A stretch of 58,491 nucleotides of DNA, counting the filler, from Sphacelaria rigidula (Eukaryota): NCBI GenBank assembly GCA_964200075.2. It is 5 parts of 5 records of this genome, joined end to end, with 100 filler letters (N's around TTAATTAATTAA, not from the genome) between each part and the next. Parts side by side here need not be neighbours in the genome. Positions count along the whole stretch, not along the records: positions 35,159 to 46,775 come from CAXNAA020004698.1; 4 more parts are not named here. One strand, 5' to 3'. Position numbers and translations under genes: made by a program. The notes below the pieces were generated by a model that did no database searches, was not told the DNA's origin, and saw only the letters and a program-made list of their open reading frames with translations. Shown one piece after another: positions 4,264 through 58,491 of this stretch; positions within the stretch are counted from its first letter, which is position 1; the number at the start of each line of letters is the position of its first letter.

Positions 4264-4419
4264 ACCATTGTTTGAGTGTCCTGAAAGGAAATGCCATCGC
4301 GATCAATCAAAGCAGATTCCAACAACACGTCGTCGGTCGTCAATACTCCACGAGAAAATACGTGCGTCTCTTCAACGCCGTGTAACACTGTTGCGATTGT
4401 GTCGGTCGTCCAGAACACT

Positions 4420-6064: not shown

Positions 6065-6699
6065 CCATTGGGATGTTCAAATTCCGATGCGATACTCTAA
6101 GCACGCGATCCTCTCACGCATTACACACCTATCATTGGAAATGAGCTGCGCCTGTCAATCGTTGTCAACGAGACATGTTCCGGACAGTAGTGCGAGAAAA
6201 TGTCGGGGGTTGTTGGCCGTAATGTTTGTCGTTCGGATGCTGCAGTACAGAGACGGGGTTTTCCCCCCCCGAACGTCCTCCTTTCTTACGGACTCATCGT
6301 TTCCCAGTCGCGTGTAATGCGCGGTTGAGTGATTGCAACATCAGTCGTGCTGCTATTTGTTGTTTTCTCATGACTCTCGCTGTTACCCATTGACGACCAG
6401 CCCCAGAACAGGGTTTTTCGGGTGGGAAACCTGGAATTGCCACAAACAAGAAAGAGATGTATCAGTAGTCGTGTGGCGGAGGAGGTAGATGCACAGAACT
6501 GCCCTTGTGGCAGAGCAATAGAAAGGAGAACTTGTATAACAAAATCGGATGATCTGAAATCACACTAAACCGTCACGCGCCCGTGTTGTTCACGTACGCA
6601 CAATACGCATGACCCCATTGTTTCAAGTACTATAGTACGACTCGAGAAAACCGAAGATGTAGGCCTTGGGAGACTAGTTTATCAAGTCAAAATGATGAT

Positions 6700-8624: not shown

Positions 8625-9126
8625 TTCCCTGCCGGTGTATGTCAGAGCAGTGTGGTACCTCGCTTCATTGTGTTTGTCCATGGATGAGAGGATCCATACC
8701 CCAAAGAGTGCGGTCGTAGTAGATGAGCCGCAATCGTTTCCTTCCTTTCCCACGACCTTTGGTTTTCTACGACTAGGTATGCGTGTGATTCCGCGCAACA
8801 CCTTTTCCGCCGAAGCCATGTGGCAGGGGGCGGCCATCTCTTGTTTCTTTTTGTTATTTACTCTTCTCTTTTTCTTTTTCTGTCTTAGTCTACTCTGTTG
8901 TTCTGTTCTCATTGTTTCTGCAGCGGGTGTTTCAGTTTTGTTGTGTCTCGGGTACGCCCATCATGTTACCACGGCCGGATCCCTGTGGGGTCGGTCAAAG
9001 TGCGACAATCACTCAACACATCAAATCAAAAGTGGGGCAATCCGAGTGCTCACCCATGCAGGATGGGGCAAATGTATTTTTTCGACTTTGTCATGTGACA
9101 GATACTCCAATGCGCACGTATAATTG

Positions 9127-9890
9127 AAAACGGTACATATTCAAAGGGTGTGTTGAGTTGGCATGTTCTTTTTGTCGTTTGATTTTGCGGATAAGGTGAA
9201 GACATCGGTGCACAATAGAAGGGTCTGTTCTGTTGGGATGTGTTTTTCATGTTTATCTTGTTTTGGGGAGTTTTGGACAAGGTGAAGACAGCGGTATACG
9301 ATAAAAGGGTCTGTTCGGTTGGGTATATATATATATATTTGTTGTCTTGGCTTTTCTTCGACAAAGGGAAGACAGCGGTGTGCAATAAAAAGGAAGGTCG
9401 TTTCTCTTCGTTTTCTGTTGTTTTTCGTATATCTGGACAGGGGGGAGAAAATGGCATACATTCAAGGGGTATGTTGGGTTGGGATGGTGTTTTGCTGTCT
9501 TTCTTTTTTTGTTGGGGGGAGACCATGGCATACATTCAAGGGGAATGTTGGGTTGGGGCGGTTTTCTTGTTTTTCTCTTGTTTTGGGTTTTTGAAGAAGA
9601 GGAGGGCAACGGTAAACAATATAAGGGTCTGATGGGTTGGGATATCGCCTCTTCGTTGTTTTTTCGCTGTTCAGGGTTTGGGGGGGCAAGGGGAAGGCAT
9701 CGGTATACAATCAACGGGGAGTTGAGTCGGCATGTGGTTTGTTTCCTATGTTTTCTTGTTTTGTTTTGTTTTTGGACAACATGGGGAAGACGGCGGGATA
9801 CGATGAAGGGGCGTGTTGGCCCGGAGTGGGTTCCTCGATGCTTTTTCGTTCGTTAGATTATCCTTCGAAAGAGGGATGGCGATATAATGT
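9127..9890 (+). repeat. Degenerate tandem array of about 10 units (72-93 bp)
   Basis: Recurring core AAGACNNCGGTAYACNATNNAAGGGTCTGTTNNGTTGGG followed by a variable T-rich tract; units start near 9127, 9199, 9284, 9369, 9446, 9520, 9603, 9694, 9787 and 9870. Confidence 0.8.
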
Positions 9891-11620: not shown

Positions 11621-11720
11621 NNNNNNNNNNNNNNNNNNNNNNNNNNNNNNNNNNNNNNNNNNNNTTAATTAATTAANNNNNNNNNNNNNNNNNNNNNNNN
11701 NNNNNNNNNNNNNNNNNNNN
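11621..11720. other. Artificial contig linker (44N + TTAATTAATTAA + 44N)
   Basis: Exact 100-nt pattern with stops in all six frames; the same linker recurs about every 11.7 kb. Confidence 0.98.
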
Positions 11721-11777
11721 GGGTCCGCCCCTACAAAGCCGGGACGGAGCACGCCGGGCTCTCGCCGGACCAGGCAT
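11721..11777 (-). mobile_element. Poly(C)-abutting repeat, subfamily M2 (partial, at contig start)
   Basis: CCTACAAAGCCGGGACGGAGCACGCCGGGCTCTCGCCGGA is nearly identical to 35019-35058; bounded by the G-run at 11778-11796. Confidence 0.75.
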
Positions 11778-11795
11778 GGGGGGGGGGGGAGGGGG

Positions 11796-11915
11796 GTACT
11801 CATTTGTTGCTTGCCGTATTAATTTGACCATTGACCACGCATCCTTTTCGAGACGATGCTCTGTTTCTACTCCTAAAAGAGACACCCCCGACATTTGGGC
11901 GCTCAGTACATTTCT
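11796..11915 (-). mobile_element. Poly(C)-abutting repeat, subfamily M1 (copy 2)
   Basis: GTACTCATTTGTTGCTTGCC...GACCATTGACCACGCATCC directly after the G-run; longest M1 copy in the window. Confidence 0.85.
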
Positions 11916-12049
11916 TCCATACAAAAGAAAAAGTGGTTAACAAAAGAAAAAGTGGTTAGCTCCGTTGTTCCACGTCCATGTCCGGGCTGTGGTCAGGTAA
12001 TGCAGGGAAGAAAATGGTTAGCTTCGTTATTTCATGGCTATATCCGGTC

Positions 12050-15122: not shown

Positions 15123-15555
15123 CTTCAATGGCAACAACAGAATAAGAAAAAAAACAGACACAAGGAACGTTCGTACATACATCCAGAGGGCAGAGAAGGG
15201 CACCCCATGATAGTAGTATACAAATGCGGGGCGATCAGGTATTGGTGTAGTACGATACGTTGTTGGCGATAATCAACCATTCGTGAAATCAGGCGTCACC
15301 AACAGTAGGACCGAGGATGGCGCCTTCTCAATAACGTTCTTCCTGTTCCGTGTGGTTTGGCGAAACAACATCTACATCTTCCCCAAGGGATCCAGAAATC
15401 GGCAGTATATCACAGAGATACAGACGTAACGGAACAAAATGCCGATAACAGTGGATAGAAGAAAACTCGAGGAATGGGAAAGACGAACACGAAGATACAG
15501 TAAGAATAGAGAACAAAGAAAACTGTGAAACAGGGAGGGGGGGGGGGGGGAAAGG

Positions 15556-15653
15556 GTACTCATTTGTTGCTTGCCTCAGTCTTTCACCATTGACTACGCG
15601 TGCCTTTCGACACGGAGCACCGTTTCCTACGCCTAATAGGGACACCTCCAACA
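15556..15653 (-). mobile_element. Poly(C)-abutting repeat, subfamily M1 (copy 3)
   Basis: GTACTCATTTGTTGCTTGCC... next to the G-run at about 15533-15556, inside a NEMF intron. Confidence 0.85.
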
Positions 15654-20830: not shown

Positions 20831-21198
20831 ATATATCCTTGGAAATCCGAACGGGTAAATCTTCTGCCCCAGCCGTTGTTGGGTCCGGTCGCGAAGTCTT
20901 GTTAATGTTTTTGTTGTTGGTTCCCTACGGGCTCGGATAGCGTACCTCGACCTAAAAATAAGGTTAAATGTTAACGCGCCCCAGCCACAGCATGCTAACA
21001 ACTATTGATCTCCTGGAGGATCAAGGAATATACATTCAAGTCAACCTTAGCGAAATTTTACGAGTAATCAACATGCCTCCCCCCCTCTGGCCTCCCCACC
21101 CCCGCGCCCAGGATGTTGACGGGTACTGGCGTACCTGGCGTTGCAGTGTCTTCTGCGCCTGCACTTCAGCTACCTTCAGCACTCTCTCCGAAGCCTGG

Positions 21199-21500
21199 AG
21201 CATCAAGCATCAAACATCAAGCATCAAACATCAAGCATCGAGCATCATAGGGATCACGCACCAAGCATTAAGCATCGAGCATCAAGCATCAAGCATCAAC
21301 CGTCCAGCATTAAGCATCGACCGTCGAGCATCAATCAAGCAAGCATCGAGCATCAAGCGTCGAGCATCAAGCATCGACTGTCCGGCACCAACTGTCCAGC
21401 ATCAAGCATCGACCGTCAAACATCAAGCATTGAGCATTGGGCGACAATCAGCAAGCATCGAGCATCGAGCATCAAGCATCAAGCATCGCAAACATCGATC
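21199..21500 (+). repeat. Heptamer tandem repeat (AAGCATC/GAGCATC)n
   Basis: About 40 degenerate units; explains the HQASSIK-type spurious ORFs. Confidence 0.9.
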
Positions 21501-23339
21501 AAAACGCACAAAAAGGCACGCGAATCGCCCTACAAGAAACAAATAAAGCAGAAAACGAGACATACCTAGGATGCCACCTCCAAGGATTTTCCGAGCATGA
21601 CAATCACCGGGGAAATTCATGACCAAGGATATGTGCATATATGTACCGGTATATATATGTATCGGAGATCGGCAATATCGGCATATATCGCAAAAATTAT
21701 CGGCATATATCGTCAAAATATTGGCGATCACAGGAATATGGCCGCCAGAGGCAGGACAATTGGGGGTATTTTCGCCTCATTTCTCGTATAAATTGGCCCA
21801 TAATATTTGACACCCCGTCCACCAAAGTGTGGGTCCGACTTTTTCGATGTTCAGTACATTTGATTTTGATTTGATTGATTGTCGCACTTTAACTGACATT
21901 ACATACCGTATACAGATTGCGCGATAGTATCACTTGCACTGGTGCCTATCTACAATCCTGGTGAGTACGACTACGAAGTAGAACAATGCCAGCAAATTTG
22001 TGACTACGAAGAATAGTACTCAGGCAAGGCATTGACGACTGTGGAGTATGACACCCAGGGTTGCATATCGGACCGAGTATGAAGTTCGATAGATATTCTT
22101 GGAATATCGAACCGCAACCGCCGATACCGATATTTTTGTCGATATTCAATGCGTTTCTTTTTTCTTCGGTACGTCTATCATGAGACCACCGCTGGGCCCC
22201 TGGGGGGTCAGTTAAAGTACGACAATCAATCAATCAAAAAAATCAAATCAATCGTTCCGAGAATGACACGATACGTATCGAGTACCGATATTCGATACGA
22301 TACGGCTGTTTCGGTATAGCCGCAGTGTACAATACCGAGCAGTGCACTTGCACACTGACACTCTCCCTCACTATTGTAGGTCGCTCAAGATACCACATCC
22401 CCTACACGGATTTTCAAAGCTCACTTACTCCCCACCAGAAGCGACACCAGGGCTGAACTGGGTGGCGTTGCAACCATCTCGTCGAGGTAAGTAATCGAGC
22501 TTTGAAAATCGTTCCTGAGGGTGTGGTATCTCAAGCACATCACGGTAGTTTTCAGGAGACAGCACTGGACACATGATGTACAGCAGCGGGTCGTGTGCAA
22601 ATTGACATCAGAGCAGCGGCGGCAGGCGATGATACAGCTGTCTTGCGAATATCTTTCGTCGCCGTGCAAGAGATCGTTGATGACAGCGAGCCGGGTGTGG
22701 TACTGGGTATACTGTTTTCATTCCTACGGTCACCATTCTGTGTGTTTCGATCGAATGAGCGCATACCTCGACTCTGCACATTCATTAGAAAAGGAAAAGG
22801 TGTCAAACCTCGAACGTGCACAAACTCAAATGCGAGGTCGTTTTTTTCAACGTTCTCCACTACCAATAACAGGAAACGTCGGCAGCATGCGTCAAGTTTT
22901 TAATTTTTGGCTTCCAAAAAATATATATTTGTATGTCACCAACCAATAAAAAATCCCCACTAAGCTTGCAACAATTAGAATGTTCAGACTCATGGATGGA
23001 GGGGAAAATAAATCCAACACTCGTCAGACACGAAGGAAAGGCAAAGCGACAGTACCATCTCCTCATACTCCAAAGGACAGCTGTTTACTAGTGTTATCTG
23101 CAGCTTTGCATTGATCGTGACCTCATATCTACTCCGCCACGCCAACCGTATGTTGCCGTTGGTAAACACCCCCGCTGAGTCATATCACCAAACCCACGAA
23201 GCACCAGCGGTGTGTGGTGTGTGAAGGGGACCTTGTAAAGTGAGGGATGGGGGGGGGGGGGGGGTTGAACATCAACTGGGGGTCTGCCGTTGGGGAAATA
23301 CCACCCCCCTGCGTTTCCTTTGACGACGGTTTCGGGAAA

Positions 23340-23439
23340 NNNNNNNNNNNNNNNNNNNNNNNNNNNNNNNNNNNNNNNNNNNNTTAATTAATTAANNNNN
23401 NNNNNNNNNNNNNNNNNNNNNNNNNNNNNNNNNNNNNNN
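23340..23439. other. Artificial contig linker
   Basis: Same 100-nt N/TTAATTAATTAA pattern. Confidence 0.98.
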
Positions 23440-25779: not shown

Positions 25780-27150
25780 GGTGTACTTGGATCCCAGAAG
25801 AAGAGTACGTACTCAAGAGGTGGAGAGAAGAAGTATTAGTAAATATTTTCAAATAAGGAGACAAGGCTGACCCAGGCAGGTATAGAGGAATAACGCTACT
25901 AAGCACGCTAAGGAAAACACTCGTGAGAGTCTGAACGATAGGGTGGGAACGATGCAGGAGAGGGAAGAAAAAAACAGCAAGAGGCGAGAAGGGCTTCGGC
26001 GAAACCGTAGCTGCACAGATCATGTGTACACGTTAGGTAGAATCATTCAAGGTAGGAAAGACCCGGGCCTAACAACGTACCGTTTCTCTCTGGACGTACA
26101 GAAGGTTCACTACACAATATGGAGAAATGGGCCGTGGAAAAAGATGTGGGAAACTGGGATCAGAGGGAAAGTATGGGAGAATGGTGAAGAAGGTGACGGA
26201 ATGTGCGAGAAGAGCTATGATGCTCGAGGGGGAAATATCGAAATAAATATATATTTTTCAAGGAGTGGCACAAGGATGTAGGTCATCATCCACTTTATTC
26301 AAGGTGTTCATACATCACATGACAGTAGCAGTAGAAGTAGCAGGGCAAGGAGCCAGGGTGGGGGAAGATACGGCGTCGGGATTGGTATCCGCGGATGATT
26401 CCGTGAGGATATCCAAAACACCAGCAGGATCGCAGGATCAAATAGAGAATGCGCTAGAGTACTCTGGGAAATAGAGAGTGATAGCGAACGTAAACAAATG
26501 CGTGGCAATTGAATGTGTAACGGAGATGACGAGAATCCGGTACAGTTTCAATGGAAGTGAAGAGAAGAGGAATTGGCGATCGTAGGTCAGTATATACTTC
26601 GCGTACAGATCTAAAAAAACTGTTGTTGGGATGCGCGCATGTGTGTGTGTGTTGTCGTCCCATCTATTCTGGACGCCAGTCTACACCTTTCGGTATATGT
26701 GGGCGCACCAGCCGGGACCACACAGGAAGAAGGCCAACACAGGAGCTTTTTGTTTGTTTGTTTTAGTTCTCCACCTTCCTTCTGCAGTGCTTGCCTTTTA
26801 CTTTTGATCGCGAGAGGGGTTCAGCAGTCCCTTTCCCTCGTCGACCATTCAGTCGAATTTTGTGTACCCACGAAAATAGATGAGGCAACAGGAAAGGGTA
26901 AGGCACATAAAGGCAGGATGGACGCGATCCTGAGAGACTCGCACCTTGATACTAGGAATAATATATGCACGCTGTTGAAAATGATTGTACCGGAGCTAGA
27001 ATATGCAGGACAAATATGGGGAGGGAACGCGAAGTTGGTGAAGCAGCTGGAAACAGTAGAAGTGACTGCAGCTGGAAAAATACTTGGATGCTCCAAAACG
27101 ACGAGTAATACAGTATTGAGAGCAGAATTGGAAATATACCAACTTAATAC
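25780..27150 (+). mobile_element. Degenerate LINE reverse transcriptase, interrupted by a SINE
   Basis: RWREEVLVNIFK*GDKADPGRYRGITLLS, GLRRNRSCTDHVYTL, FSLDVQKVHYTIWR, GVAQGC..S.TLFKVFI, GLVSADD, PELEYAGQIW; several stops and frameshifts. Confidence 0.88.
26635..26875 (-). mobile_element. SINE family 1, 5'-truncated, nested in the LINE
   Basis: TCTGGACGCCAGTCTA...CCACCTTCCTTCTG...TCGCGAGAGGGGTTCAG...TTTCCCTCGTCGACC shared with 12050-12290; lacks the tRNA head. Confidence 0.8.
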
Positions 27151-27734
27151 TCAGACAGCGAGGGTCGCCTCAGAATAGTTTCAGCGGCTGACAGTCCAGG
27201 GACATCTGAGGTTTTCCAGGGGACGGGGGGGTGGTTTTTGACAGGGGATGGGAGCTTGCTTGCAGAACAGTCGAAAAATTTACCAAGTCAACCATGTGTG
27301 TATGAAAGTTTCCAGAGGAAAATTACAAGTCTAGGAGGCCCGAGAGGAGCGGAGTGACCATTCTCACCAATCACGGCCATCAAACTAGTCAGTTTGTTCC
27401 CCTACAGACGGACTACAGGTGTAGTACTACTTCGCTGTCTAGCCGTATTTCTCATTTTGATGATGACCATTCAACCATGGATGGCATGAACACAATCAAC
27501 GTGCTTTTACTCAGCTTGTGGTCTATGCCGCCTGCCTGACCCCTCATATGTTGCCAGCGTGGCTTCACACTGTTGTGTTGATGTGAGACACTAAGCCGAG
27601 GCAGTCACTAGCAACATGCATTAGACTTTGACCAGTGGATAGCAATGGGACACTGACCGTTTATTGCCGTTGACCGCTTATTGCCGTTGTGTCCGGCGAA
27701 GACGTCGAGCACACATACCGACTTTGCACGCAAT

Positions 27735-34029: not shown

Positions 34030-34625
34030 TAATTTTCACTTGAGAAGTTACTGTGTGACCCAGATTGTGAACCCTGGCGTTCAAAGGAATAACGTTCCGA
34101 AAGGTTAGTCGCTGGATATATAATCCGAAAACAAGTCAGCATAGAAAGGACGGTGGAGGGAAGATGTGCCCAGGTGCACCTAGATCCCACTTCTCCGGCG
34201 ATAGTGATGATGAGAAGGACTGTTCCGAAATTGTGGACATGTGTACTTGTCTTCGCCCAGTTTAAATACATGTTTTATTGGTGGGTTGTTGTCGATTATT
34301 GATGAGGTGTCGTCGTTTCCCCCCATCATACCGGCCTTGTGATCCTGACGCCGGCGTGAAAATAGGGTCGCCACCAACATATGATTCTTCAATGTTGCGA
34401 CGGGTTAATACCCTCGCATGCAACGTATGAATCAGAAGAACATTTTTGGAATGCATGCTATTATGTGCCACGTAAAATCGGCAGAACCTGCTTAATGTAC
34501 AGCGGCGCAATAATAAGATAAATGTTCCGGTGGTTAACATCCTCATTCCCGTTATTTCAATGTTAGTTCCACAAAAGTATCGTTCCCTATTAATACTCGT
34601 ACAGCTAACAACTCAAATCTACACG
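34030..34625. repeat. Dispersed duplication, homologous to 32735-33110
   Basis: See partner copy. Confidence 0.7.
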
Positions 34626-34968
34626 TATTCCTCAACGTGTTTGTGTGGGAACCACCACATAGCAGGGGAAAATCTTCATGAGCTCATTTTTTCACACTGG
34701 CGACACCATGTGATAGCTCGTACGTTTCACGAACAGAAGGTCCCGGATCCAAATCCCGGATTCCACCAAAACGGTGGGAGCCAAAAAAGAATGGTAGATA
34801 CGACCTGAAGCAGAGTTTAAAACTCACGGGAAATCTCCTGCGGTGATTATTGGTTGGATGGCCCAACACACGTAGAAGATATGTGAATTTAAAGGCAAGA
34901 CTACAACCGCTGGCTGGCGTAAAAGGTTGCTCCTACAAAACCTCAAGAGGTTCATGGAGGGGGAGGGT

Positions 34969-35058
34969 GTACTCATGATCATGCATGCCATAGTCATAAA
35001 GACCGTTGACCTTGCATCCCTACAAAGCCGGGACGGAGCATGCCGGGTTTTCGCCGGA
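34969..35058 (-). mobile_element. Poly(C)-abutting repeat, subfamily M2 (at contig end)
   Basis: G-rich run 34956-34967, then GTACTCATGATCATGCATGCCATAGTCATAAAGACCGTTGACCTTGCATCCC..., colinear with M1. Confidence 0.75.
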
Positions 35059-35158
35059 NNNNNNNNNNNNNNNNNNNNNNNNNNNNNNNNNNNNNNNNNN
35101 NNTTAATTAATTAANNNNNNNNNNNNNNNNNNNNNNNNNNNNNNNNNNNNNNNNNNNN
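35059..35158. other. Artificial contig linker
   Basis: Same 100-nt N/TTAATTAATTAA pattern. Confidence 0.98.
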
Positions 35159-35284
35159 CCGTAAATGTATTTAAAACGGGCGATAAGAGAACGAAATAAT
35201 TTGAAAAAGATCGGGATTTATCGTCTCATTTTTTTTTTTTTCATTTCATCACTATTTAAACCCCCCCCCCCTCCTCTGAACGAA

Positions 35285-40959: not shown

Positions 40960-41217
40960 AACCCTTTATACGGTAGTCCCCCCCCCCCTCTCCCAAAAAA
41001 GTTGCTGGTTTGGGCAGGCAAAATTTGCACGTCAACTGAAATGAAGAAGCCGAGCACAACGACAGCTGGAAAACCTCACGCTCGGGTTCGTTTTTACCAA
41101 TGCCACCCACATGAGGTGCTTCATGCAGTCTGAAGCCAAACATTAGGCGTTCCATGACCGTGTTCATGACAGTTTTAGGCTGGTTTCTTGGGGGGGAGTA
41201 CGACCGTAGTAAGACTC
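40960..41217. mobile_element. MITE family A, diverged copy
   Basis: Internal homology to 4013-4263; ends AACCCTTTATACGGTAG / CGACCGTAGTAAGACTC; flanks AATG/ATTG (TSD with 1 mismatch). Confidence 0.75.
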
Positions 41218-42164
41218 ATTGGTTGATTGCGCACGTTGACTGAAGGCTGTGGAATATGTTCATACCAGTAGTCGCAAGATAGGCCGTAGTTATACCCAAC
41301 GTACAGCAGAACGAAATCACTCGCTAACGGAAACTCGAAAAACGATGAGACGAAGAAATGGAAATGCAAGCACGTTACGTGCGTGAGTACTTGGAAAACA
41401 GACCATCGGCCGAAACTCCAACCTTGTGAAGAATACCTCTGCTCAATAGTACACAGTTTACGTGAAGTGACTACTACAGCAGCTACTGAGGGGATAATCG
41501 ATCGCGAGTGAGGCACATACCATCTGTTCGCCACATAACGGGCAGCGCCCGGTGTCAGCCTGAAGAAAAACTGTTCCTGATTCTCAAAACCCGTGACCGT
41601 GCGATGAATTAAGGTATTGTGCAGAAAGTTATGCGTTAGGGTATCATCCACCTATACGGCCTGCTACGAAAGACTTAACGTGCTCTTCATAGTACTGTGC
41701 TGCTAGATATGGGCCACACCTCATACTCGTCCGCATCGGAATAGTGGCCTAAAGGGTAGACTTTGCACATTCTGCACAATGTAGGGACTCGGATGAAGGT
41801 AATCATCAACAGTGAATCGCCTACAATATGCAACAGATTCTCAGCATAGCCGGATACAGCACGTGCAGGTAATCCGGCAATTCTCCTGGTCATCTTAGAG
41901 GTAACCGGGTAGTGCTATCTTGTATTTTGTTTAGCAGTACAGGATGTGTACATAGACGACTCCCCGAATTTCCGGAGGTGCGTCGAGGGTGATGGTCGGA
42001 CAGCAGTTAGAATCTGGAGGGTGGGCACGCATGTTGCGATGAAGATCAGATAATATGTGAGACTCGTCATCGTGTTGCGAAGCAAGGGGATCGAAATTTT
42101 GTGGACCGGGGGAGGCTGGCATTATCGTCCAACATTCATGTAGAATATCCACCGGGAACTTCCG

Positions 42165-44808: not shown

Positions 44809-46456
44809 GTACGTGCAGAATAAGGGCCTTGCTGGCTTTGTTGGTTTCGTCAACTGTGTTGGATGTGCAGGATTTGCTGACACTGTTGGAAGTTGTGGTT
44901 AACCCGTCCGATGAACTCCCTGCCAGCTCAGCCGTTGACCCCGTACTGGTATAGTTGGCGGCCTATGATGCTCCCGCATACCGTGCACAAGAAAACATGC
45001 AGTGGGGGTTGTTAGCCCAGGATGGGATGGTAGTTAAAAGATCGATACTAGTGGATTTCTCCCCATTGTGAAGTTGATGCATCCACCGGGTGCACCCTGG
45101 TGGGCTCTGCCCTCACTAATCGAGCGTCGCCACCAGACAAAAAATGGCCAACTCTTGCCGATTTTGTTGTGAGTTTGGCTTCACGAAATCTATATAGGTT
45201 CACCTCTTCACTTCTATACGCAGCCGTGACCTAGTGGCGAAGATATACGGTCCAATTTAAACCTGGCAGATGAGTAAGAGCGGAAGATTGCGGGTTCGAA
45301 GCCTGGGAGAGGCAGATGGGTCTGGATTGTTTTCTGAGAGATATCCGATTTCTGCCAGTGTAAGCGTGAGGTCGTGCATAGCAAAGAGAGTTCTTGTCAC
45401 GAGAGTCAACGAGGTGCAGGAGTGCTGATGGTCATGATCCAACCCGCGACAAGAAAACATGCGACGTGTACCAGGTGAAAGATGGGCTGCTCCCTTGAGA
45501 CCGCGGATCCGTCCCGCGAAAGGGAGGTGTAGTCATGATCTTGCATACCGTCGGCATAAGACCATTTACCTCACATCCTCACATAGCCGGAACAGAGTAC
45601 GCTAGATTTTCGCCGGACCAAGCTGGCACTCAATCACCAAGAGCGAAGACCCGTGATTGTTTGATGAGTCGTATGGAGGGAGAGCAACACCCTGGTAAGA
45701 ATGTTCGGCCCGAAGCGTACCGATTGTCTTGCATATGAATGACAATCTCGAATGAGTTGCTTCATATTCTCGTATCGTCACTTCCAGAGACAGTCACGAG
45801 TTACACACCGTGTCATAGGTGCCTCATCGCATTGAAACACTACGTAGTACGATTATTTCCCTTTGCGCGGAGTTTGGGTTCTCTATTCCCCGCGCAATAT
45901 GATCCAGCTCGACCATCATCATGTTTACCGCAATAGAAAACGCAAGCGAATAAAACCCGGCAATCTGGTTGCCTAGCTAACGCAGTAAGTGGCGTGTTTT
46001 ACAGCGTCGGTACCAACCGAAGCCAACCCTCAAAAGGGGGGAAGTGAGGGAGGAAGGAATGACAGTGTGACGAGTAGATATATGTACAAGGGACGCGGCG
46101 GCTTTCGCCGCACACTCTGTGGGTAGAACTCCAGGATACTTGAGCGCCGGTGCGTCGCGTAATTGCACACGACATAATTTTACGAAAAAGCCGTAGCTAC
46201 TCATCAGCTGATCACGTTATGAGTGACCTTGCACAGGTCTTTTTCGAATTCAATGAGAAACGGTGTTTCGTGAGGGACGCGCGCACAACACAGGCACGGA
46301 AAGGGTCAACACCCGTTCAAATAGTGCCGATTCAAATTTGTAAAAGGAGTAACCGTTGGTGTTTCTTGAAGCTTTCCCCACAGAGATTAGAGCCGTACGG
46401 AACAGAAGATCCGAGACGAGAATTTGAACCAGTTTTGAGAGCGGGCCACGAAGTGC

Positions 46457-46496
46457 ATACTCATTTGTTGCTTGCCTTGGTCATTCGACCATTGAC
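46457..46496 (-). mobile_element. M1 repeat fragment interrupted by MITE-B
   Basis: ATACTCATTTGTTGCTTGCCTTGGTCATTCGACCATTGAC followed immediately by the MITE-B terminus. Confidence 0.7.
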
Positions 46497-46775
46497 GAGC
46501 CATCCTACGGTAGGGGGGTATTTCGAAACGTTTTTCCACGAAAGCAGCAACGGTTGTTCAAACGCCCTTAATACCTATGAACGTCACTCGTTCATACTAC
46601 TTGACACGGTTTCCACCAAAATACAAGGGCACCGTGAGTGTGTTAGGTCGTCTGACACACCAATGAGCCTTTGAGCCTTTTTTCGTGGAATGATTCCCCC
46701 CCACCCCTGTGCTCCGTCTCGAAAGGGATGCGTGGTCAATGGTCAAACGACTAAGGCAAGCAACAAATGAGTACG
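46497..46775. mobile_element. MITE family B (right end lost at the contig break), containing an M1 copy at 46709-46775
   Basis: Starts GAGCCATCCTACGGTAGGGGGGTATTT; internal homology to 56667-56990. Confidence 0.8.
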
Positions 46776-46875
46776 NNNNNNNNNNNNNNNNNNNNNNNNN
46801 NNNNNNNNNNNNNNNNNNNTTAATTAATTAANNNNNNNNNNNNNNNNNNNNNNNNNNNNNNNNNNNNNNNNNNNN
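46776..46875. other. Artificial contig linker
   Basis: Same 100-nt N/TTAATTAATTAA pattern. Confidence 0.98.
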
Positions 46876-46943
46876 CGACGATCTGACTCGAAATTTCGAG
46901 CAACAAATGGCCCAAAATACCCCCCCCTATCGTAGGATGACTC
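46876..46943. mobile_element. MITE family B terminal fragment (at contig start)
   Basis: AAATGGCCCAAAATACCCCCCCCTATCGTAGGATGACTC matches the reverse complement of the 56667 terminus. Confidence 0.8.
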
Positions 46944-47804: not shown

Positions 47805-48052
47805 GACACTTTCTACGATAGCCCCCCCCGAGAAAGTGCATGGTGTTGGGAGGCAAAATCTTCACGTAAATCGAAATGAGAAAAGCCGAGCACAACGAGA
47901 AGCTGGGAATTCCCATGCTTGGGTTCGTTCTAGCCGATGTCGCCAACATGAGGCGCTTCACGCAACCTGAACTTGAACATCAAGCGCTGTATGGCCATTT
48001 GTTTCGTGACACTTTTAGCTGGTTTTGGGAGCGAGCTATCGTAGAAAGTGTC
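47805..48052. mobile_element. MITE family A inserted in a 21-bp tandem repeat
   Basis: TIRs GACACTTTCTACGATAGC / GCTATCGTAGAAAGTGTC; flanks GGAC/GAAC split a GGACTGTCACTACA unit of the repeat at 47758-47804. Confidence 0.9.
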
Positions 48053-48784
48053 GAACTGTCACTACATGAGTTTCTTCACGTCGGGAAATTGGGGGCAACC
48101 AGTGCCGTTGCTCGGCAGCAGTAGATACACCGATTGCATAAGTGATTATATGCGGGGCTCACGCCTTGATTTTGTATTGTCCACCCTTTGACTACTGTAG
48201 TGTTTCGTCGCGTTCGGTTCTTCCCTTCGCAGTGACCTATGGCTCTATTTTAGTTATATGTTTTCTATTTTCGTTTTGTTGAGGTTTGGGGGGGGGAATA
48301 ATTTTTTGTATCTCATTTGTTTTGGCACAACGGCCCTTATTTACTTGATTGATGGGATATTTGATTCGTTACGCCAGGTTATATTTTTCCAATTTTTTCC
48401 CCGCTACTGTCACACGGGTGTCTCATATCTCTGTGTGCCTTCTTTTCCGCTGTAGTCCTTTCGAAAGCAGCCACTTCCATGCGGCATATAAGCATCATAT
48501 GATCTCACACTAACAATACGTTCCCCCGTCCGCCCCTGCCGCTTTCGCTGTTCGATTTTGCTCGTCCCGTACGCACCTGCGCAATGCTACGACTCATATC
48601 ATGGTCGTCGGTGTCGCACCATACCGTTTCGATGACCGGGACCTCCTCCCTTATCGCCATCTCGCATGTGCGAACACCAATGCGTGTTTTTTCACCATTC
48701 TTACTATGACTTTTCCCGCACAACTTACTCATGTTTCGCTACCTCCGCCCGTTATCGCGTGCCGCTTTTCGACGATTGATAGAG

Positions 48785-51000
48785 ATGCCTGCTACCAACA
48801 GCCACTACGATAACCACGGTAGCAGCACCAACGCCGCCTCTGCAAACAATCCGCAGGGCAGCGACCCCCACCGCTCATCAGCAGGTCGAGCAGGTGATGT
48901 AGGGGCTGTTGCGCCCCGTCACCCCCATCACCTACGCAGCAGCGTGCCCCCCGACATCCAGGGGAGCGGCAGTGGCGGTGGTACTGCCGGGGATCTCAAC
49001 CCCCGGGCGCCCCCCTCCCCAGCACTGTGCACCACAGAAGCCACGAGGATCTCGTCCGTCGCTCCTCACCGACGCACCACAGGCAAGACAACGGGGATAC
49101 CAGACTCTCGACTTCCCGCTCTCCGAGCCGCCACCGCTCTCGCTCCCGTTCACGGGCAGAGCGCCGTTCTCGCTCTCACCCCCGCCGCCACCGCTCCCGC
49201 TCCCGCTCCCGCTCCCGCTCTCGCCGCCGTCGATACCGCCGAAACTCTCGCTGGCCCTCCCGCAGCAGGCGTCAACACTATGCCATTATGTGGGGATCCC
49301 GGGAACGTCGCCACCACCGGGAGGAGCATAGGGCGCACCAGCAGCAGGCGGATGCCGGTTGGCTAAGGCGCTGGGATTGTGATGCACCAGGAGCAGCAGC
49401 TCGAGCTGCGGTCCAAGGTCTGGAATCTAACCAGCTGGCGAAGGTGAGCGAGCGGGTACTTAGGCGTATTACGCGTAGTCGACCATGCCCAGTGTACGCA
49501 GGACCAAGTGCGGGGGAACTATCGGTTGTCGACAGCGCTGTTGTGCTGCAATACCAGATATGGTCGACGCTGCGTGCAATGGACCAGGGAGATTTGAAAA
49601 TGCCGGAAGATGAATACGTCAACGGTAAGTGGGTAACACAGACAGATCAGTACTCCGCCCGCCAACGCGACCTCCTGATCGAGTTGCTGGCAGAAACCAG
49701 CGGTATGTTTATGTCTCTAACCGCAGTGGATTCAGTAGACGTTTATCGTATCACGGGCGAAACCGACACCGTCCCACATAAATCCGTTACTATGACCGAC
49801 TGGCTACGGATCCTCGTCCGTGAAGAAGTGATGACGAACGGGGCTACTAAATTATGCACGCTGCACTAGACGCCATCACCTTAGGTCCCAACGAGTCGTG
49901 GAGTACGGAGGCGCAACGGGTGTTGCTAGCATTTCCCGCGAGTTTAGCTAACCCAGACCGACCATACAGTACCGAAGCTACGTATTTCTGGCGATTTATC
50001 ACCGCCCGGCAGCTAAGCGAGCTTTACGACCGTATTATCCGAGTCATTCTGCCTAACCCGGTTGATAGGCTAGGTCTACAGTCCATCCTCCACGAAAAGA
50101 CACACGCAATCTGGGCCAGGCTGCAGCCTCTGAAGAGCGAGTGGCACAATCCTATAGGGATAGCAATGCAAAGAAGGGGGGGTGTAGCCAAGAGTCTTTA
50201 CGAGGATTTCATACGTATCGTGTGCACCCGCAACGTGGTATATAGCGACGACAGTCACGCCCGCCCCCAACCGCGTACTAGCAACCGCGGCGCGGGACCT
50301 GACAGATTATTTTTACTTGAGGAATTAAGGAACCGTGCTACAGTCGCCCCCGGAGTTCGCCGCGATGCTCCAGCAAACTAATCCGGGGTCACCTCTCTTC
50401 CCCGAAGTGCCGCCCGCCGTGCCAGCCCCTCCTGCGTCCTCTAATCCTCAGGTGTTAGCCGGCCACCACTCGGCAGCACCTTCCGTCGCGGCGTTCAACA
50501 ACCACCTGGCGGTCTCACCGGGCTCATACGGCGTGCCCTTCATGCAGCAAAGTTCGACACCCATCAACCCCAGTCCTCGCGCCACGACTCCGGGTCATGC
50601 CGTCGCACCCCGCGCGGCAGATTTGCAGCACAAACCCCCGGCACCGCCGTTCGGGCCCGCTTCGCTGCCACCGACACCCGCCACATCCGCCCAGCCAGTC
50701 GGTCCGGCCTCGACTACCGACCTATCCGTACCGCCGATTTCGGCAGGACGGGGCGCAGTGATTACCTTCTTACGTGATCGTGAAATCTGCTTCGGTTACG
50801 CATTCACCGGCTCGTACCGTCACCGGGGCAACACCCCCTGTCCCTGGGCGCACGGTATCACCCCCGCCGCACACTACAGCGGCCTGCCGACCCGCCGCAA
50901 GACGGCCATTCCCCAACGCCGGCTAGCCGTGCTTACGGAGGCACAATACTTGGCGGCAATCGACCTGGGTTTCATCGGCGAAGGCGACGACGACGGTGGC
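48785..51000 (+). pseudogene. Gypsy gag-like ORF (frameshifted): RS-rich N-terminal region, Pro-rich linker, CCCH-type finger
   Basis: Joined from ORFs 48731, 49027, 49854 and 50335; (RS)n tract at 49110-49270; C-x8-Y-x7-C-x3-H at 50788-50853. The gag call rests on position upstream of PR. Confidence 0.65.
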
Positions 51001-52418
51001 GATGATATGCTGAGCGCATCCGTAAGCGAGGGCGCCGCTGACGACACTCGAGCCGACGTGTGGAGACGCGCCCCAGGTGCAATTGAACTGGGGAACCTTC
51101 GCCGACACAGCGTCACCACAATATCCCAGCGTCGAGGAAGCCAACTTTGGGTGACGGGCGAGATCTGGCACCGACGGCGTCTCCGTCGACCGTGGCCGAT
51201 AGAAATCTTGTTGGACACGGGAGCGGGAGGTGGCAACTATATGTCAGGAGCGTAATGGCGCAGCTTACACAAGGCCAACATCCTGGACGATACGCTAAAC
51301 CCTGAGGCGGTAGATGTTCTCTGTGCAGCTAACCCATCCTAGAGTAAGGTTCCCCCAATGCGCATAATCGGTTCCGTAACTGTGCCCTTGCTTTTGACCT
51401 TCGACTCACGGGTCCGTAATGTACCAGTGCGAATAGTGGAGTTCCTGCCGTACGGTTTCATTTTAGGTGCAGATTATTTTCGGTACAATAACAGTATAGA
51501 TTTGGCCCCAGGAAAAGGGTTCCGCCCCGCGCCAGCGGCACCGTGTATCCCGTTCCTGACGAGCGAAAAGCCTACCTACCACATTCAAGGTATATTAGTA
51601 GCTCTGTACACCGCGACCGAAACCACCGCCTCCCTAGCTGCGCCCGCTTGTCCGTCCATCCACAACGACTCCAGCTACCGTGACATAGCTTGGGAAGACG
51701 ACAGCACCCTAGAGTGGAAGCTGCGCTTGGTCGCACAAACGATCACGCTCAGCGGCTTCGTCAGCGCCGCGGTAGAAACAGCCGTGATCGATCCTCAACC
51801 TCAGGATAGGCAGCTTGTGCTTGTACTCCCACAAGCAAAGTTCGACCTGGACAAGGGGGCAGAGGTGGGGATCGCGAAGGGAGTATCGTGGTGGCAGCCA
51901 GGCTCGCCGGTGTGCTGCAAACTTGTAAATAGAAGTAAGGAGAAGGTAGCGGTGGAGCCTACTGACACGGTCACGCGTATGATAGCACTGAACGTACGCG
52001 ATCCCGCCAGGTTTCACTCACTATTTGACCCCCATCCGTCTACGACAGACCCCCCGTGGATCCCCCACCCCGCGCCCCACGTTCAGACAGTAGTTGCTCG
52101 GCCCAACCAAATCCTAAGGTCAACGTGAAGGACGCCAACATGGGCCAGCTTGGAGCGGCGGAAAAGAGAGAGCTGGTAGACACGCTGCTGAGCTTTATCG
52201 AAGCTGGGTTGTTTCCCACAAACCCCAAGCGGGTTCCCGCTTGTATCAGCGATGAGCTCGAACTCCCCCTAACTAACGAGTCATGTTCGCCATTTACAGC
52301 TAAGCAAAGTTGATTTTCTCCGGAGGAACGTCACATGATCCGCGAAGAGATACACAAGCTTCTTGATCGCGGGATCATTTGACCCTCAACCTCCCCGCGG
52401 GCAGCCCAATGCCTATGC

Positions 52419-54167
52419 GTGAAGAAAAAAGACGGCACCTTACGCTTGTGCATTGATTGGCGTGAACTGAACAATCTCTTCGTGTCGGACAGCGGGGGTC
52501 TCGGGGATATGCAATCCATTTTCGACGGCCTCAAAGGTAAGCGTTACTTCACCCAACTCGATCTGGCCTCCGGTTTCCACCAAATCAAGATCGTCGAGAA
52601 AGATCGCTTCAAAACGGCGTTCCGAGATGCAGATGGCCTCTTATACGAGTTTACACGAGCAGGCTTTGGTCTAACAGTCCTACACACCCCGTTCACTCGT
52701 CGGGGAAAAGGTACGATAGGACAGTTGGATGGAGTGTTCACTTGGCTTGACGATATTCTTGTCGCGACCACATCCTGGGACGAGCATGTAGCCCTACTCG
52801 TTATCGTGTTCCAACGCTTGTTGGTCGCGGGATTCTCGGTGAACTTCGCCAAGTGCATTTTTGCATCGGCGTCGCAAGAGTTTCTGGGCATGCTGGTAGA
52901 TAGCAGCGGTCTTCAACCCGCGCCATCCAAGCTCGCCGCCATCGCCGAGATGCCCAGACCATTCACCGTAGAGGAATTACGTACTTTCCTCGGCCTCACA
53001 GGGTACCTGCGCCAGTTTACTGAGAAATACAGCCTAGTGGCCGCCCCACTAACCGATCTGCTCCGCAACAAAGATTTCGCATCCAAGCGTGCACGAAAGC
53101 TGTCCATACCATGGAATACCGAGCAGGAAGAGGCGTTCCAAGCCCTCAAAGCGGCCTTGTCCTCGCCGAAGGTACTAGCCTTCCCCGATCCCAACAACTC
53201 GTTTATACCGCAGACGGACACGAGCGAGGTGGGGGCTGGGGCGGTGCTGCTGCAGCCGGTGGGGTGCGAAACACGTATCGTATCATTCGGCAGCCATCGA
53301 CTCTCTCGTAACGACTCGCGCAGAGCACCCACAGCACGAGAGTGCATGGCTGTCTTGTGGACTGTCCAACACTATAGACCATACTTGGCTGGAAGAAGGT
53401 TTACGTTGATCACGGACTGTTCGGCACTCATATGGTTGTTCCGTAGCCGCGATCTCTGCCCCAAGTTACACAGGTGGGCCTTGCGGCTAATGGAATATGA
53501 CATCGACCTCCAGTGGCGGGGGGGGTCCGAACATGTGCTGCCAGATGCATTGTCCCGTTTCCCACACGCGAATGAGCCACAGCCCGACATTGATGACTCC
53601 TTTTCGGACGATTTCACGTCGGACTCGTCGACAGAATTTGTAGGCCCACAGGGACCACAACTCGCGGGACAACGACTGTCGGAACTACAACCAGAAGGAG
53701 CGGGTACGTCAGTGAGTGCAGACACAGGTATGCACTCATCGTCGAATGCCAACAACCCACCGGACATCGCCGCCCTGAGTCTACTCCCTTTCTCAGAATG
53801 CGCAGTCATCAACGATAACCAACACCTGCGCCGTTCAACTCGTGTTCGCAGACCGTCAGTACGCCTGCAACCCCCCGATGCTGCGTATACAACAACTCTG
53901 CCCTTCACTCCTCAAGTAGTCGACTCGAATCCGCCCGCAGAGCCAACGCCGATTAAAGTACCGCTACAGGTGCCGACACCGATCATTCCGCCGACAACCG
54001 GTGAAAGGGTAGAAGTGGGTGAAGTGCTCCTGGCCGAGGGAGAAATGCCTACGGGGTTAACGGATCTGGACTTGACGGACACAACGGCGGTCGATCGTGC
54101 ACTACGGATACTCACCAACGTGAGCAATCTCCGGCACCACCAACAAAGAGATTCATTTCTCAAATAG
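52419..54167 (+). pseudogene. Gypsy reverse transcriptase-RNase H segment
   Basis: Longest open stretch (582 aa) with canonical RT/RH motifs, then a low-complexity linker of about 200 aa. Confidence 0.93.
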
Positions 54168-54294
54168 GTGCAGTCAGATCTTGCAGGCGGCGAAACACCA
54201 GAGGCGGTGAGTGAGAGACGGTCAGATTAAAAAGTAGACAAGTAAGGTATCCTGTGGTACCGAGCAGTCAACGATAAGGAGCTAGCTGCTAGCT

Positions 54295-55889
54295 GTGCCA
54301 AAAACGATGGTAGCTGACCTGTTGGCACTCATGCATACACTCCACGGACATGTCGGAGTAGGCGCCACCCTTGCTCTGATACACGATCGCTTCCACTGGC
54401 CTACTATAACACGTGATACCAGACAGTACGTGCTATCGTGCAGCTGTAGACGACGCAAGAAGGCAAGCAGCCGTCAAATGGTGATGAGACTGGGGCGCAC
54501 TTTACACCCATGGGCCAAGTTGGAAATCGACTTACTAACCATTGATGTGATGTCGCACTTGCGCAACAACTACATTCTGCTGGTACTTGACCCCGCCTCC
54601 CTATTCAAGTTCGAGTTTCCTCTGCCATCAAAGAAAGCGGACTAGATCGCACGCATCCTAGCAGACTTATGCCTGACTTTTGGTGTCCCACGAATGACCC
54701 GCTGCGACAGGGGCAAAGAGTTCAGGGCCGATGTCGTCACGCATCTGTGCAGGTGGTTAAAGACAGACACCGCCTTTGGGCCGTCGGACCACCCACGCGG
54801 TCAGGGAGCGGTCGAGCGACTTGGGGGATGGCTGTTGGACATGCTATCGGAACTATGTAGGCTGTGGCCCCAGAGGTGGGATAAGTGGATCAAGCGCACA
54901 TTGCCCGACACATCGCTCCCCTCTAACATGTCCTCTTTTGAGTTGCTGTTCGGCCGCAAACCACGCTAGACTCGCTCGTGCCCCTCTCACAAGAAGCAGA
55001 ACCGAGCAAGGGACTAGATGCCTTTGTTGAACAGCGCAGGCAGAATCTTCGTGAGGTAAGGATGGCGATGGACAAAAGGCAGGGGGCAAAAGTAGCGTCG
55101 CGGGAGAAGGACAATGCAGCCATCTCGAGACCATCAGCAGGCGTGTCGGTCACGGAAGGGGATCTGGTAATGGTGAGGGAGAGTGAAAACTTCACGTATC
55201 AAGATGGCAGGGGCAGTAAGCTGCAGCACGATAGGTATACGGGACCTTGGACAGTGAAAAAAGTACTGATGGTCGGACAGAGTCTCGAGGTAGTAATACA
55301 AGGACGAAAACTACGTACTCGCACAGTAGCCCCGTCTGATGTCAAATCGTACCATGTTCGGCCGCCGCACTTGAGACACTCCATTGCCGACGAGTTCGTC
55401 CAGTTTGCATGGGGATCGGACTTCAAGATATCGTCTTCGCCTAACTCCACACCCCGCCTCCTTACCCTAGTGAACCGCCGCGAGTGCAAATCGGGGAAAG
55501 GAAGTGCAGGTTGGGAGTATCAAGGAAGGACGCAGGAGGGGGCGACGTCAGATTGGCTTCCGGAGAGCAAAGTCCTGGAAAGCTTCACACGTCTGCAACT
55601 GGATGGCTTCCACGCACTGTGGTGTCTTTACCACCCGGCCAAGACACCAAGTACGCCATCTCGCCCGAGCATCCGCCAGACCCCCCTGTCACGCAGTGAC
55701 GCCCTGAACTTGATCCCCGTAGGTTTGGAAGAATTTCGGTGGGTCAAGCAGAGAGGACAAGTGTTCGACTACGGCAAGCGTTTCTGGAGAGTGCGATACG
55801 ACAACGGGGACTGGGAAGAGTTGTCACAGAGAGAACTCCAACAGCTAGCGCAGTCGAGCGAGACAGCAACATCGCCAGTCACGAGCTAG
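54295..55889 (+). pseudogene. Gypsy integrase with GPY/F region, chromo-like and Tudor-like C-terminal domains
   Basis: HHCC finger, DDE core broken by stops; LVNRR..GWEYQGRTQEGATSDWLPESKVL (chromo-like) and GQVFDYGKRFWRVRYDNGDWEELSQRELQQL (Tudor-like). Confidence 0.85.
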
Positions 55890-56666: not shown

Positions 56667-56990
56667 GAGTCATCCTACAATAGGGGGGGGGGGTATTTTG
56701 GGCCATTTCTTGCATGAAGTTCCAAGTCAAATCGGCCTCGAAAGGAGCAACGGTTGCTCGAACGAGCTTGTTCTAGATATATAACGCTCGTTCATACCGA
56801 TTGACACCGTTTTGAACCAAATACAAGCGCACCGCGAGTGTGGTAGACCGTCTGACACATTTTCGAGCCTCTTTTTTCGTGCAATCAAATACCCCCCTCC
56901 CCTCCGTCTCGAAAGGGATGCGTGGTCAATGGTCAAACGAGTAAGGCAAGCAACAAATGAGTACGCCCCCCCCCTATCGTGGGATGACTT
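56667..56990. mobile_element. MITE family B (4-bp TSD TGGG), containing an M1 copy at about 56902-56965
   Basis: TIRs GAGTCATCCTACAATAGGGGG / CCCCCTATCGTGGGATGACTT; TGGG at 56663-56666 and 56991-56994. Confidence 0.88.
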
Positions 56991-58491
56991 TGGGTCAGCT
57001 TTTTGCGAGTCTCACACTACCCAGGATCGATCTAATCGATCACGGGTGTCTAAGCGCCGTTACCACCTGAGGATAGTTTAAGACTTTTTTCAGTGGTTTC
57101 TGTTTCCAGTGTTACTGGGATCCCGGGACGACATAGCACATGCGAAAGCACTCGCTATGATCCGAAAGGGCGTGAGAGTTTTTTTCCTCAAACGATGAGG
57201 ATTTTTCCCTGAACACCAGGTTTGGCCCATCTTTTGATTCTATGACGAGTTTTTCCCGTGGTCATCGCTAGCCCTGAAATTCCGCGGTTTTCTCGTCGAT
57301 TTAAGGCTGATGGCATGTATTTGAGTGGATCTTTTTTGGTATGAAATGAGTCGTGACATTCCCTACTTTGCATTACAGCGCACACAAAGCAAGAGAGGGG
57401 ATACTGTGACGGCGGATATCAGTCGCTTATATAGAAGGCGTTCTCGATGTGCGTGATATGGGCGATAGGTCGTTCTCCAGCTGTACGTTTGTCGCGTTAT
57501 ATTCCAGTCGGGTTCTGCAGTATCACCCCAGGCTGGTCAGTCGTGTTTAGCAACCAAGCGACCCTAATAACAAAAGCTATCAGCCACACTTGGAGAAATC
57601 CTCCTTGCAAGCAAGTCAAAAGCACCTCTTCTGGACGTGAAAGTGAGTCCCTGCTTGGCCTTATGATGCAGTGCTGGTCGGACTCAAGGGTTTGTTACTC
57701 ACGAGTTCAAGGGTGATTCCTCTCGACTGCAATCATTCACTCTGGCCAGCCGCTGACCTCGGGTCACCCCTGGCCGGGTATGTTCTGTGAGAGTGACGCC
57801 AGTAGCACCTCGTGATCAGCCCACGACAGATACTGCAACAACGCCACAACACGGACGGGGATAAAGCGCATGAAGCGCGCATCATCCGCGCTCAAAAACC
57901 TCAAAGAGGGGCTCAGAAACAAAAACACGCTCACGAAAAGAAATTCGAACTCAATCTCAAGAAAATAACGCGCATACGGAACTCAAGCATTCCAATTTTC
58001 AAATTGGTTGTTGTCTCAGGCTATTCCAGATCCGGTATTGGATTTCTGTGACAGAAAAACGAGCAGAACGTTTTGAGAACTTTTCAAAAACAGACAGAAC
58101 TTTTCAAGAACCGCTCAAAATATGACCCCATTATCTGGAGTACAAGGTGGTACACTCAGAACAAGACAACTCTGCAGTGCTATATGAAGTGCAGAGTACT
58201 ACCCTGAACACCAGATAACACGGCAGTTCTGCAGTGTTTTCTAGTTTCAGAACCTGAAGACGGACTGTATACAGTATAACACCGTTACTACTGTACTCTC
58301 TGTGCTTGCAGAGTACAGCCTGTACTCGGACAGTGGAGGTGGTACCCGGACAGGGGAGGTGGACAGCACGCTATCACTTGTGGATAGATACACTGCAATA
58401 GCTGGGTATGCTTTGTTATTTTTTTCAAGGCTCCTCTCGTGAACGATTTGTCACTTCGGGAACGTTCCGTACGGGAACCAGCCACCACGGT

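Follow-up and report, generated by a model that had tools for sequence, protein, structure and literature searches.

Composition of the locus and copies of the repeat module

The window analysed here is a 58,491-nt stretch of DNA from the brown alga Sphacelaria rigidula, consisting of five separate 11,619-nt contigs set end to end, with N runs flanking a TTAATTAATTAA linker at each join (11621-11720, 23340-23439, 35059-35158 and 46776-46875). Because of this construction, apparent 'end' features, including that of the focal copy described below, correspond to contig cuts, and distances across the joins carry no meaning. Eukaryotic marks in the window comprise microsatellites, a CCDC93 open frame, and gypsy-type reverse transcriptase (RT), RNase H and integrase sequences. 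The interior of a gypsy-type LTR retrotransposon spans 48710-55889 (+), with RT and RNase H domains at 52383-54167 and an integrase zinc domain at 54286-54645; a PTM/DIR17-like Tudor match, under the Pfam cut-off, lies at 54942-55889. Also present are two tandem arrays, one of ~85-nt units (9119-9811) and one of short, 7-nt-based units resembling CATCAAG (21174-21506).

Dispersed across these contigs are copies of a 66-nt module, the terminal 18-mer of which occurs eight times in the window when up to three mismatches are allowed, against 0.02 occurrences expected. Blast and covariance-model searches agreed on six copies of the type designated M1 (19-85, 11795-11863, 15555-15622, 46456-46523, 46707-46775 and 56897-56965), as well as on one copy of a second type, M2 (34968-35043; 23.4 bits, E 1.3e-4). 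Two further M2 pieces were recognised by eye and by pattern (45529-45602, and 11721-11755, which is cut). Applied to the window, covariance model R1 yielded no additional copies and missed the decayed M2 at 45529; one covariance-model match, at 34380-34435 (E 0.026), was rejected as a copy on inspection. The features of the module and of the elements carrying it are collected in Table 1.

Table 1. Module copies, related LINE fragments and predicted helices of the focal module, in window coordinates
Feature	Position	Strand	Description
Focal module, LINE-derived	46709-46774	+	tblastn match to aa 1235-1253 at 46711-46767, 94.7% identity
P1 helix	46709-46714 with 46769-46774	+	3′ strand overlaps two stop-codon bases
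P2 hairpin	46715-46720 with 46725-46730	+	6 bp including two G-U pairs; GAAA loop 46721-46724
P3 hairpin	46740-46744 with 46749-46753	+	loop 46745-46748; nested in 3-bp helix 46735-46737 with 46755-46757
Module copy	19-84	+	aa 1229-1253; LINE part cut by contig start; followed by TT and 10 C (87-96)
5′-truncated LINE copy, ~125 nt	11796-11922	-	module 11796-11861; aa 1214-1253, 72.5% identity
5′-truncated copy	15556-15653	-	module 15556-15620; double change in P2; 1-nt deletion in P3 loop
Non-coding 'body B' element	56668-56995	+	module 56899-56964; 244 nt at 78% to 46536-46775
Second 'body B' element	46457-46775	+	left end, inverted variant module 46457-46520 (-); right end, focal module
M2 module	34969-35042	-	9-nt P2 loop, 5-nt P3 loop; outside LINE frame; upstream part cut by contig end
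Decayed M2 element	45529-45699	-	module 45529-45602 plus ~100 nt of M2 body homologous to M2 of contig L120
M2 module, 5′ part (P1 5′ strand and P2)	11721-11755	-	cut by contig start
Related LINE fragment, RT region	25785-27151	+	aa 608-984 of the L043 frame, 48-68% identity, frame breaks
Short LINE fragment	6386-6538	+	aa 1097-1148, 57.7% identity

The bodies of the body-B and M2 elements are non-coding and unrelated to one another, the module being the sole part that they have in common with the LINE described below. For M2, homology between the window copy and contig L120 extends over ~146 nt. The possibility that M2 forms the end of a second LINE was considered and dropped, since none of the 12 open reading frames scanned on the minus strand of L120, the M2 strand, had a Pfam match; on the same basis M2 is treated here as non-coding. 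Individual copies also differ in their surroundings. The truncated copy at 11796-11922 has a C-rich tail at 11778-11795 and adjoins an M2 element at 11721-11770, and the C-rich tail of the copy at 15556-15653 occupies 15534-15555. In the body-B element at 56668-56995, C takes the place of the three leading bases of the P1 5′ strand, the module is followed by a 9-C run and a short terminal motif, and the ends of the element form an inverted repeat of ~25 nt.

The core of body B in the second element (46620-46667) is itself highly repeated and has no Rfam match. Its summed depth is ~12-fold higher in sequencing run X2, the kind of which is guessed to be RNA, than in run X1; module depth shows the opposite pattern, being lower in X2 than in X1. 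The body-B core may be a separately expressed or separately amplified unit. Another motif lies after a C run at 46915-46943, 56668-56693 (minus strand) and 56966-56994, and comprises a 4-bp hairpin, CCTA-NNN-TAGG, followed by GGATGACTC. This motif ends three elements at the same base and, in the copy at 46457-46520, continues into the full module. The elements bearing it look like a subfamily in which P2 has been swapped for a different small hairpin.

Coding evidence for a LINE 3′ terminus

Searches outside the window recovered three module-bearing contigs of related algae, one from a marine metagenome (L043) and two from bacterial metagenome-assembled genomes (MAGs; L120 and L121). A metagenome scan with a loose pattern gave 118 loci including a single true module copy, that of L043, and prokaryote genome contigs gave three exact matches, corresponding to the algal contigs L120 and L121 and to a chance 19-mer (L119). 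Both L120 and L121 carry the algal LINE and represent host contamination of bacterial bins, one titled Sulfitobacter sp. and one uncultured bacterium; a search of the two MAGs that hold them added one weak module copy (L124). The module had no matches among viral contigs, and none was found in 400 further genomes of the family of genome G001.

On the minus strand of L043, positions 694-4455 form a 1253-aa open frame that runs through the module and ends in NGAPSRKGCVVNGQMTKASNK immediately before the stop codon. Pfam identified two domains in this frame: Exo_endo_phos, an AP-type endonuclease (aa 64-285, E 3.1e-11), and RVT_1, a reverse transcriptase (aa 634-883, E 7.7e-33). The best PDB relatives of the RT are R2 and L1 ORF2p. 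A second contig, L121, carries a 1382-aa open frame with the same end and 95% identity over the last 500 aa of the L043 frame. Translation of the LINE stops at the TGA contained in the terminal ATGAGTAC, after which come only GTAC and a run of Cs; in the LINE, then, the module holds the final 20 codons with their stop codon, plus a 3′ UTR of 4 nt.

The LINE material of the window itself consists of fragments only, with intact frames located on the contigs of relatives. C-terminal residues of the LINE were found by tblastn on four window copies (3-77, 11803-11922, 46711-46767 and 56904-56957). The focal copy contains the last 19 LINE-matching codons, followed by TGA at 46768-46770 and GTAC at 46771-46774, and is cut one base after GTAC, the contig ending at 46775 and the N run beginning at 46776. 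Conservation of the encoded C-terminus extends to more distant relatives: in three diverged LINE proteins, one of them labelled Ectocarpus sp., the C-terminal 20 aa have 20/20, 19/20 and 17/20 matches, compared with 11-18/20 in each of the three preceding 20-aa windows. One homologue of the LINE protein, labelled Ectocarpus sp., has 71% identity over the last 354 aa.

Taken together, these findings leave little doubt about the nature of the 66-nt module: it forms the 3′ terminus of a brown-algal non-LTR retrotransposon (LINE) of autonomous type. The repeats that a first-pass annotation of this DNA had designated 'M1' are, judged by their sequence, 5′-truncated LINE copies with differing start points. 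That annotation had overlooked the coding character of most of the module, which in the LINE spans the final 20 codons plus the stop codon; this provides an alternative reason for the conservation of the module. In reading the module as an RNA-level end signal of a retroelement, the annotation was correct as to type. Its suggestion that the module might serve as an RT recognition signal fits with a position at the extreme 3′ end of both an endonuclease- and RT-encoding LINE and the non-coding elements that share the module, and we regard such a role as plausible. The element is otherwise ordinary, comprising a LINE 3′ end, truncated copies and dependants, and represents no new class of RNA. 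A diverged, inverted, module-like stretch was also observed ~500 nt upstream of the LINE frame of L121 (~4730-4805, or 455-530 in the minus-strand view).

Truncation, C tails and abundance

Copies of the module keep a constant 3′ end and vary in where the LINE sequence begins (aa 1214, 1229 or 1235/1236). The same asymmetry is seen in contigs of the sequencing runs, which break at 46696-46712 on one side and have a fixed end at 46772-46775 on the other. A C-rich run of 9-22 nt follows four of the five uncut M1-type window copies, and such a run also follows the module in L043, L121 and L120. Contigs matching window positions 46300-46775 numbered 2987, 2128, 48604 and 224 in four runs, with nearly all of the summed depth in these runs falling within 46700-46775. 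For run X1, summed depth reaches ~1.5 million on 46700-46775 versus ~16 in the unique flank, which shows the module to be a very high repeat, summed depth being no measure of copy number. Loose contig ends lying before 46709 run mostly into LINE coding sequence. Poly-C is frequent at the loose ends before 46710-46712, i.e. many copies, that at 56899 among them, have no P1 5′ strand; behind 46773/46774 the loose ends run into poly-C of more than 20 nt in all four runs. The C runs are a likely reason why contigs break at the module.

Many contigs return 61-79 nt across short C-rich inserts, and modules are therefore arranged head to tail. Many copies are also recent, since 687 of the 2987 X1 contigs are at least 99% alike. 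Among the variants listed, a C-to-T change at 46748, in the P3 loop, is the only one within the module. Coverage by contigs of the RNA library X18 is limited to the module and to the inverted arm of the second body-B element, and does not constitute proof of transcription at the focal locus. In a comparison of the 3′ flank of L121 with the 1 kb upstream of its frame as a potential target-site duplication, no common 9-mer was found; the other copies are cut or abut repeats. For annotation, these results imply that thousands of short module matches ought to be treated as ends of LINE or SINE-like elements and masked accordingly.

The inverted arm just mentioned raises the question of whether the module is instead a long inverted repeat at the termini of a MITE or other cut-and-paste DNA transposon, its stems being a by-product of that arrangement or a signal read by a transposase on DNA. 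The 3′ 48 nt of the module are indeed present in inverted orientation in the second body-B element (46458-46505 with 46726-46773, 220 nt apart and 88% complementary), and the homologous element at 56668-56995 also has inverted ends. However, just one of the six M1-type window copies has an inverted partner, and the inverted arm (46460-46491) has a summed depth of ~3800 in X1, ~400-fold below that of the module, which indicates that the inverted-pair form is a minor derivative. A cut-and-paste element is also contradicted by the endonuclease and RT open frame that ends in the module, and would be difficult to reconcile with 5′-truncated copies that have a constant 3′ end and a homopolymer tail, or with the lack of a transposase domain in Pfam scans of 67 of the 105 listed window open reading frames of at least 110 aa. 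We consider a transposon origin extremely improbable. A tRNA-derived SINE, which would have a tRNA-like head with polymerase III boxes, was also rejected, ARAGORN detecting no tRNA-like genes in the window and Rfam giving no match; a T-arm-like stretch noted by eye in antisense upstream of the 15555 copy received no support from either ARAGORN or Rfam.

Predicted three-helix fold and its conservation

The first-pass annotation had proposed that the module folds as an RNA into helices P1, P2 and P3, the last nested in further pairs. These helices are present at the positions given for them, and they form the minimum free energy (MFE) structure of the isolated focal 67-mer (-19.0 kcal/mol; z -2.39, a value reached by 5 of 200 shuffles). 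Folded alone, the module from the intact LINE on L043 also adopts the proposed structure (-19 kcal/mol; z -2.41). The choice of strand was likewise correct, in that the LINE open frame lies on the same strand. The antisense of the focal 67-mer folds poorly (z +1.23). Overall, a full fold of the P1+P2+P3 type is the minimum for 4 of 11 isolated sense copies, namely the focal copy, 19-85, 15555 and L043, with z values from about -2.2 to -2.6; for copy 19-85, the antisense folds equally well (z -2.33). In 150 nt of context, P1 and P2 are replaced or lost (z -0.34).

The sequence variants on which the proposal drew are real. In the 15555 copy, P2 has one pair changed on both sides and one U-to-C change, and a P2 loop of 9 nt is found in the M2 copies at 34969 and 11721, with a 5-nt P3 loop also confirmed in M2. 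What these changes say about selection is a separate matter, and the compensatory changes offered as support for the fold do not exceed chance among the copies compared. Seven M1-type rows contain a single pair altered in both strands of the helix, a score that 318 of 500 shuffles reach. A model-fitted alignment of 12 rows gave a contrasting 0 of 500, which we attribute to an artefact arising from the spurious row 34380-34435 and the forced fit of the variant copy 46456-46523; with those two rows removed, the 10 distinct rows contain one double change, matched by 1065 of 2000 shuffles. RNAalifold, applied to seven copies as the earlier proposal had recommended, predicts the same architecture with an unfavourable covariation term (+1.13). 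The alignment from which covariation and column counts were taken comprises the copies other than 45529, 11721 and L124. Covariation above chance, and with it selection for pairing, is thus not confirmed. Dead copies are poor material for a test of this kind, for which lineage-level sequences are needed.

The further claim that loops diverge while stems are kept depends on the copies compared. Between M2 and M1, stems are kept and length changes are located in the unpaired 3′ stretch and in two loops, which differ by 4 versus 9 nt and 4 versus 5 nt. Within M1, by contrast, differences affect 22 of 280 positions in paired columns versus 10 of 182 in unpaired columns, and only on adding M2 and the variant copy do paired columns vary less (40/400 versus 41/260). 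The best conserved stretch of the module is the predicted single-stranded 3′ segment, and in the M1 copy of L120, three of the six P2 pairs are broken.

These results bear directly on the principal alternative, in which the module is the same LINE 3′ end and its fold is incidental, with conservation arising from the youth of the copies, the coded C-terminal 20 residues, and a protein or priming step that reads primary sequence and the C tail instead of structure. Such an account is consistent with covariation no higher than in shuffles and the unfavourable RNAalifold term, with M1 stems that are as variable as loops and an unpaired 3′ segment that varies least, with the loss of the fold in 150-nt context and in 7 of 11 isolated copies, with the number of near-identical X1 contigs, and with the coding nature of the module in the intact LINE. 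It accounts less readily for the frame-broken M2 and variant modules, which keep the stem sequence and have most of their length changes in loops. Since the M2 length changes together break the reading frame, coding cannot explain stem retention in M2. The 15555 copy retains P2 through non-synonymous changes on both sides of the helix. In three diverged relatives, conservation is higher over the last 20 aa than over the preceding 60, which would also be unexpected, if possible, for a short unstructured tail. On balance, we give an incidental fold somewhat less than an even chance. The three-helix fold, as modelled, is plausible and as yet unproven, with chances that are about even, and we hold it to be a toss-up whether the fold itself matters to the LINE through template recognition.

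The first-pass annotation had also raised the possibility of a ribozyme, and a compact junction of three helices that has a GNRA loop and lies where a transcript ends might suggest a self-cleaving or RNA-processing element that trims the 3′ end of the retroelement transcript. Ribozymes are known in other retroelements: hammerheads occur in Penelope-like elements, and the known LINE ribozymes are located at the 5′ end. The latter include the HDV-like ribozymes described at LINE 5′ ends (PMC3383444). The module matches none of 4227 Rfam families, either at gathering scores across the whole window or at E values of up to 10 over 46440-46775, and known ribozymes are excluded on this basis; a new ribozyme is without positive evidence. 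Furthermore, the module shows no evident conserved unpaired core besides coding sequence, and the loops that would form such a core differ between M1 and M2. A processing role of this kind is accordingly very unlikely.

Comparison with known LINEs and a possible model for template recognition

A possible role of the module in template recognition can be assessed against the 'stringent-type' LINE tails, recognised by the element's own protein, of the L2-clade elements ZfL2-1, ZfL2-2 and UnaL2, and against the SINEs that carry such tails. As in those systems, the module is a conserved 3′ element, some tens of nucleotides long, with a simple-repeat tail behind it, is common to an autonomous LINE and to short non-coding elements with unrelated bodies, and contains predicted hairpins. 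The module differs from them in three respects: it takes in the final 20 codons together with the stop codon, which lies 4 nt from the tail, rather than occupying a 3′ UTR; its tail is a C run, unlike the short tandem repeat or A-rich sequence that is usual for LINEs; and three nested helices are proposed, versus one stem-loop. By analogy, we infer that the module could work like a stringent-type LINE tail. In zebrafish, the proteins of stringent LINEs bind the cognate 3′ stem-loop (PMC4176376).

With respect to lineage, a single endonuclease and RT frame and a very short 3′ UTR are traits of RTE-like LINEs, and the LINE described here resembles RTE by architecture alone (single endonuclease and RT frame, 4-nt 3′ UTR). 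Members of that group are prominent in the same host group, the brown algae: RTE-X, RTE and CRE LINEs, together with their non-autonomous partners, are reported as the most abundant transposable element families of Ectocarpus, and the partners (e.g. RTEX-N1_Ec32) are described as conserved with the autonomous LINE only at the 3′ end (PMC12477816). Structured 3′ RNAs that are bound by the encoded protein to start reverse transcription are also described for R2 and for SART1/R1 (PMC11194090). The RT of R2 is the best solved relative of that of the present LINE; however, R2 and SART1/R1 are site-specific elements with long non-coding 3′ UTRs, whereas the module is 66 nt, mostly coding, and dispersed as a very high repeat. 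A literature search for C tails found nothing relevant, and we make no claim of novelty in this regard.

A possible course of events can be outlined for the 3′ end of the LINE RNA, in which the last 20 codons and UGA are followed by GUAC and the C run. The LINE protein would pick up its template at the module and start target-primed reverse transcription there, with the C run annealing to a nicked target rich in G. Recognition by the protein might rest in part on the P2 and P3 hairpins and the P1 helix that closes them, in the manner of stringent-type LINEs. Non-coding RNAs bearing the module, such as those of M2 and body B, would then be copied in trans, and tandem arrays might arise through insertion into older C tails. 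Considered jointly, this would describe a brown-algal LINE lineage that carries a template-recognition RNA structure within its last 20 codons, with a stop codon that falls within the closing helix and, four bases on, a homopolymeric tail of C, so that the end of translation would be physically coupled to template pick-up, and in which C-tail priming would drive both self-targeted tandem arrays and the spread of unrelated short elements. As a complete account this conjunction is speculative and, we estimate, rather improbable.

Identification of the module provides an explanation for a very abundant repeat in a newly sequenced brown alga. Two of its features are mildly unusual, namely the C tail and the overlap between the end of the coding sequence and a candidate recognition structure, and the family offers a convenient case in which to study template recognition by RTE-like LINEs with almost no 3′ UTR.

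Runs of C or G are frequent elsewhere in the window. There are 26 such runs of at least 7 bases in the 58 kb, several of them beside the ends of other repeats, which suggests that several element families in the window possess C tails. Examples of homopolymer runs lie at 2720-2732, 23249-23264, 35261-35271, 40978-40988, 41190-41196 and 48288-48296, and variants resembling the last bases of the module are found beside C or G runs at 41190-41230 and 48288-48320. Another dispersed repeat family (4030-4229, 47823-48022 and 41064-41156), with 88% identity over 200 nt between two contigs, likewise ends beside a run of eight C or G.
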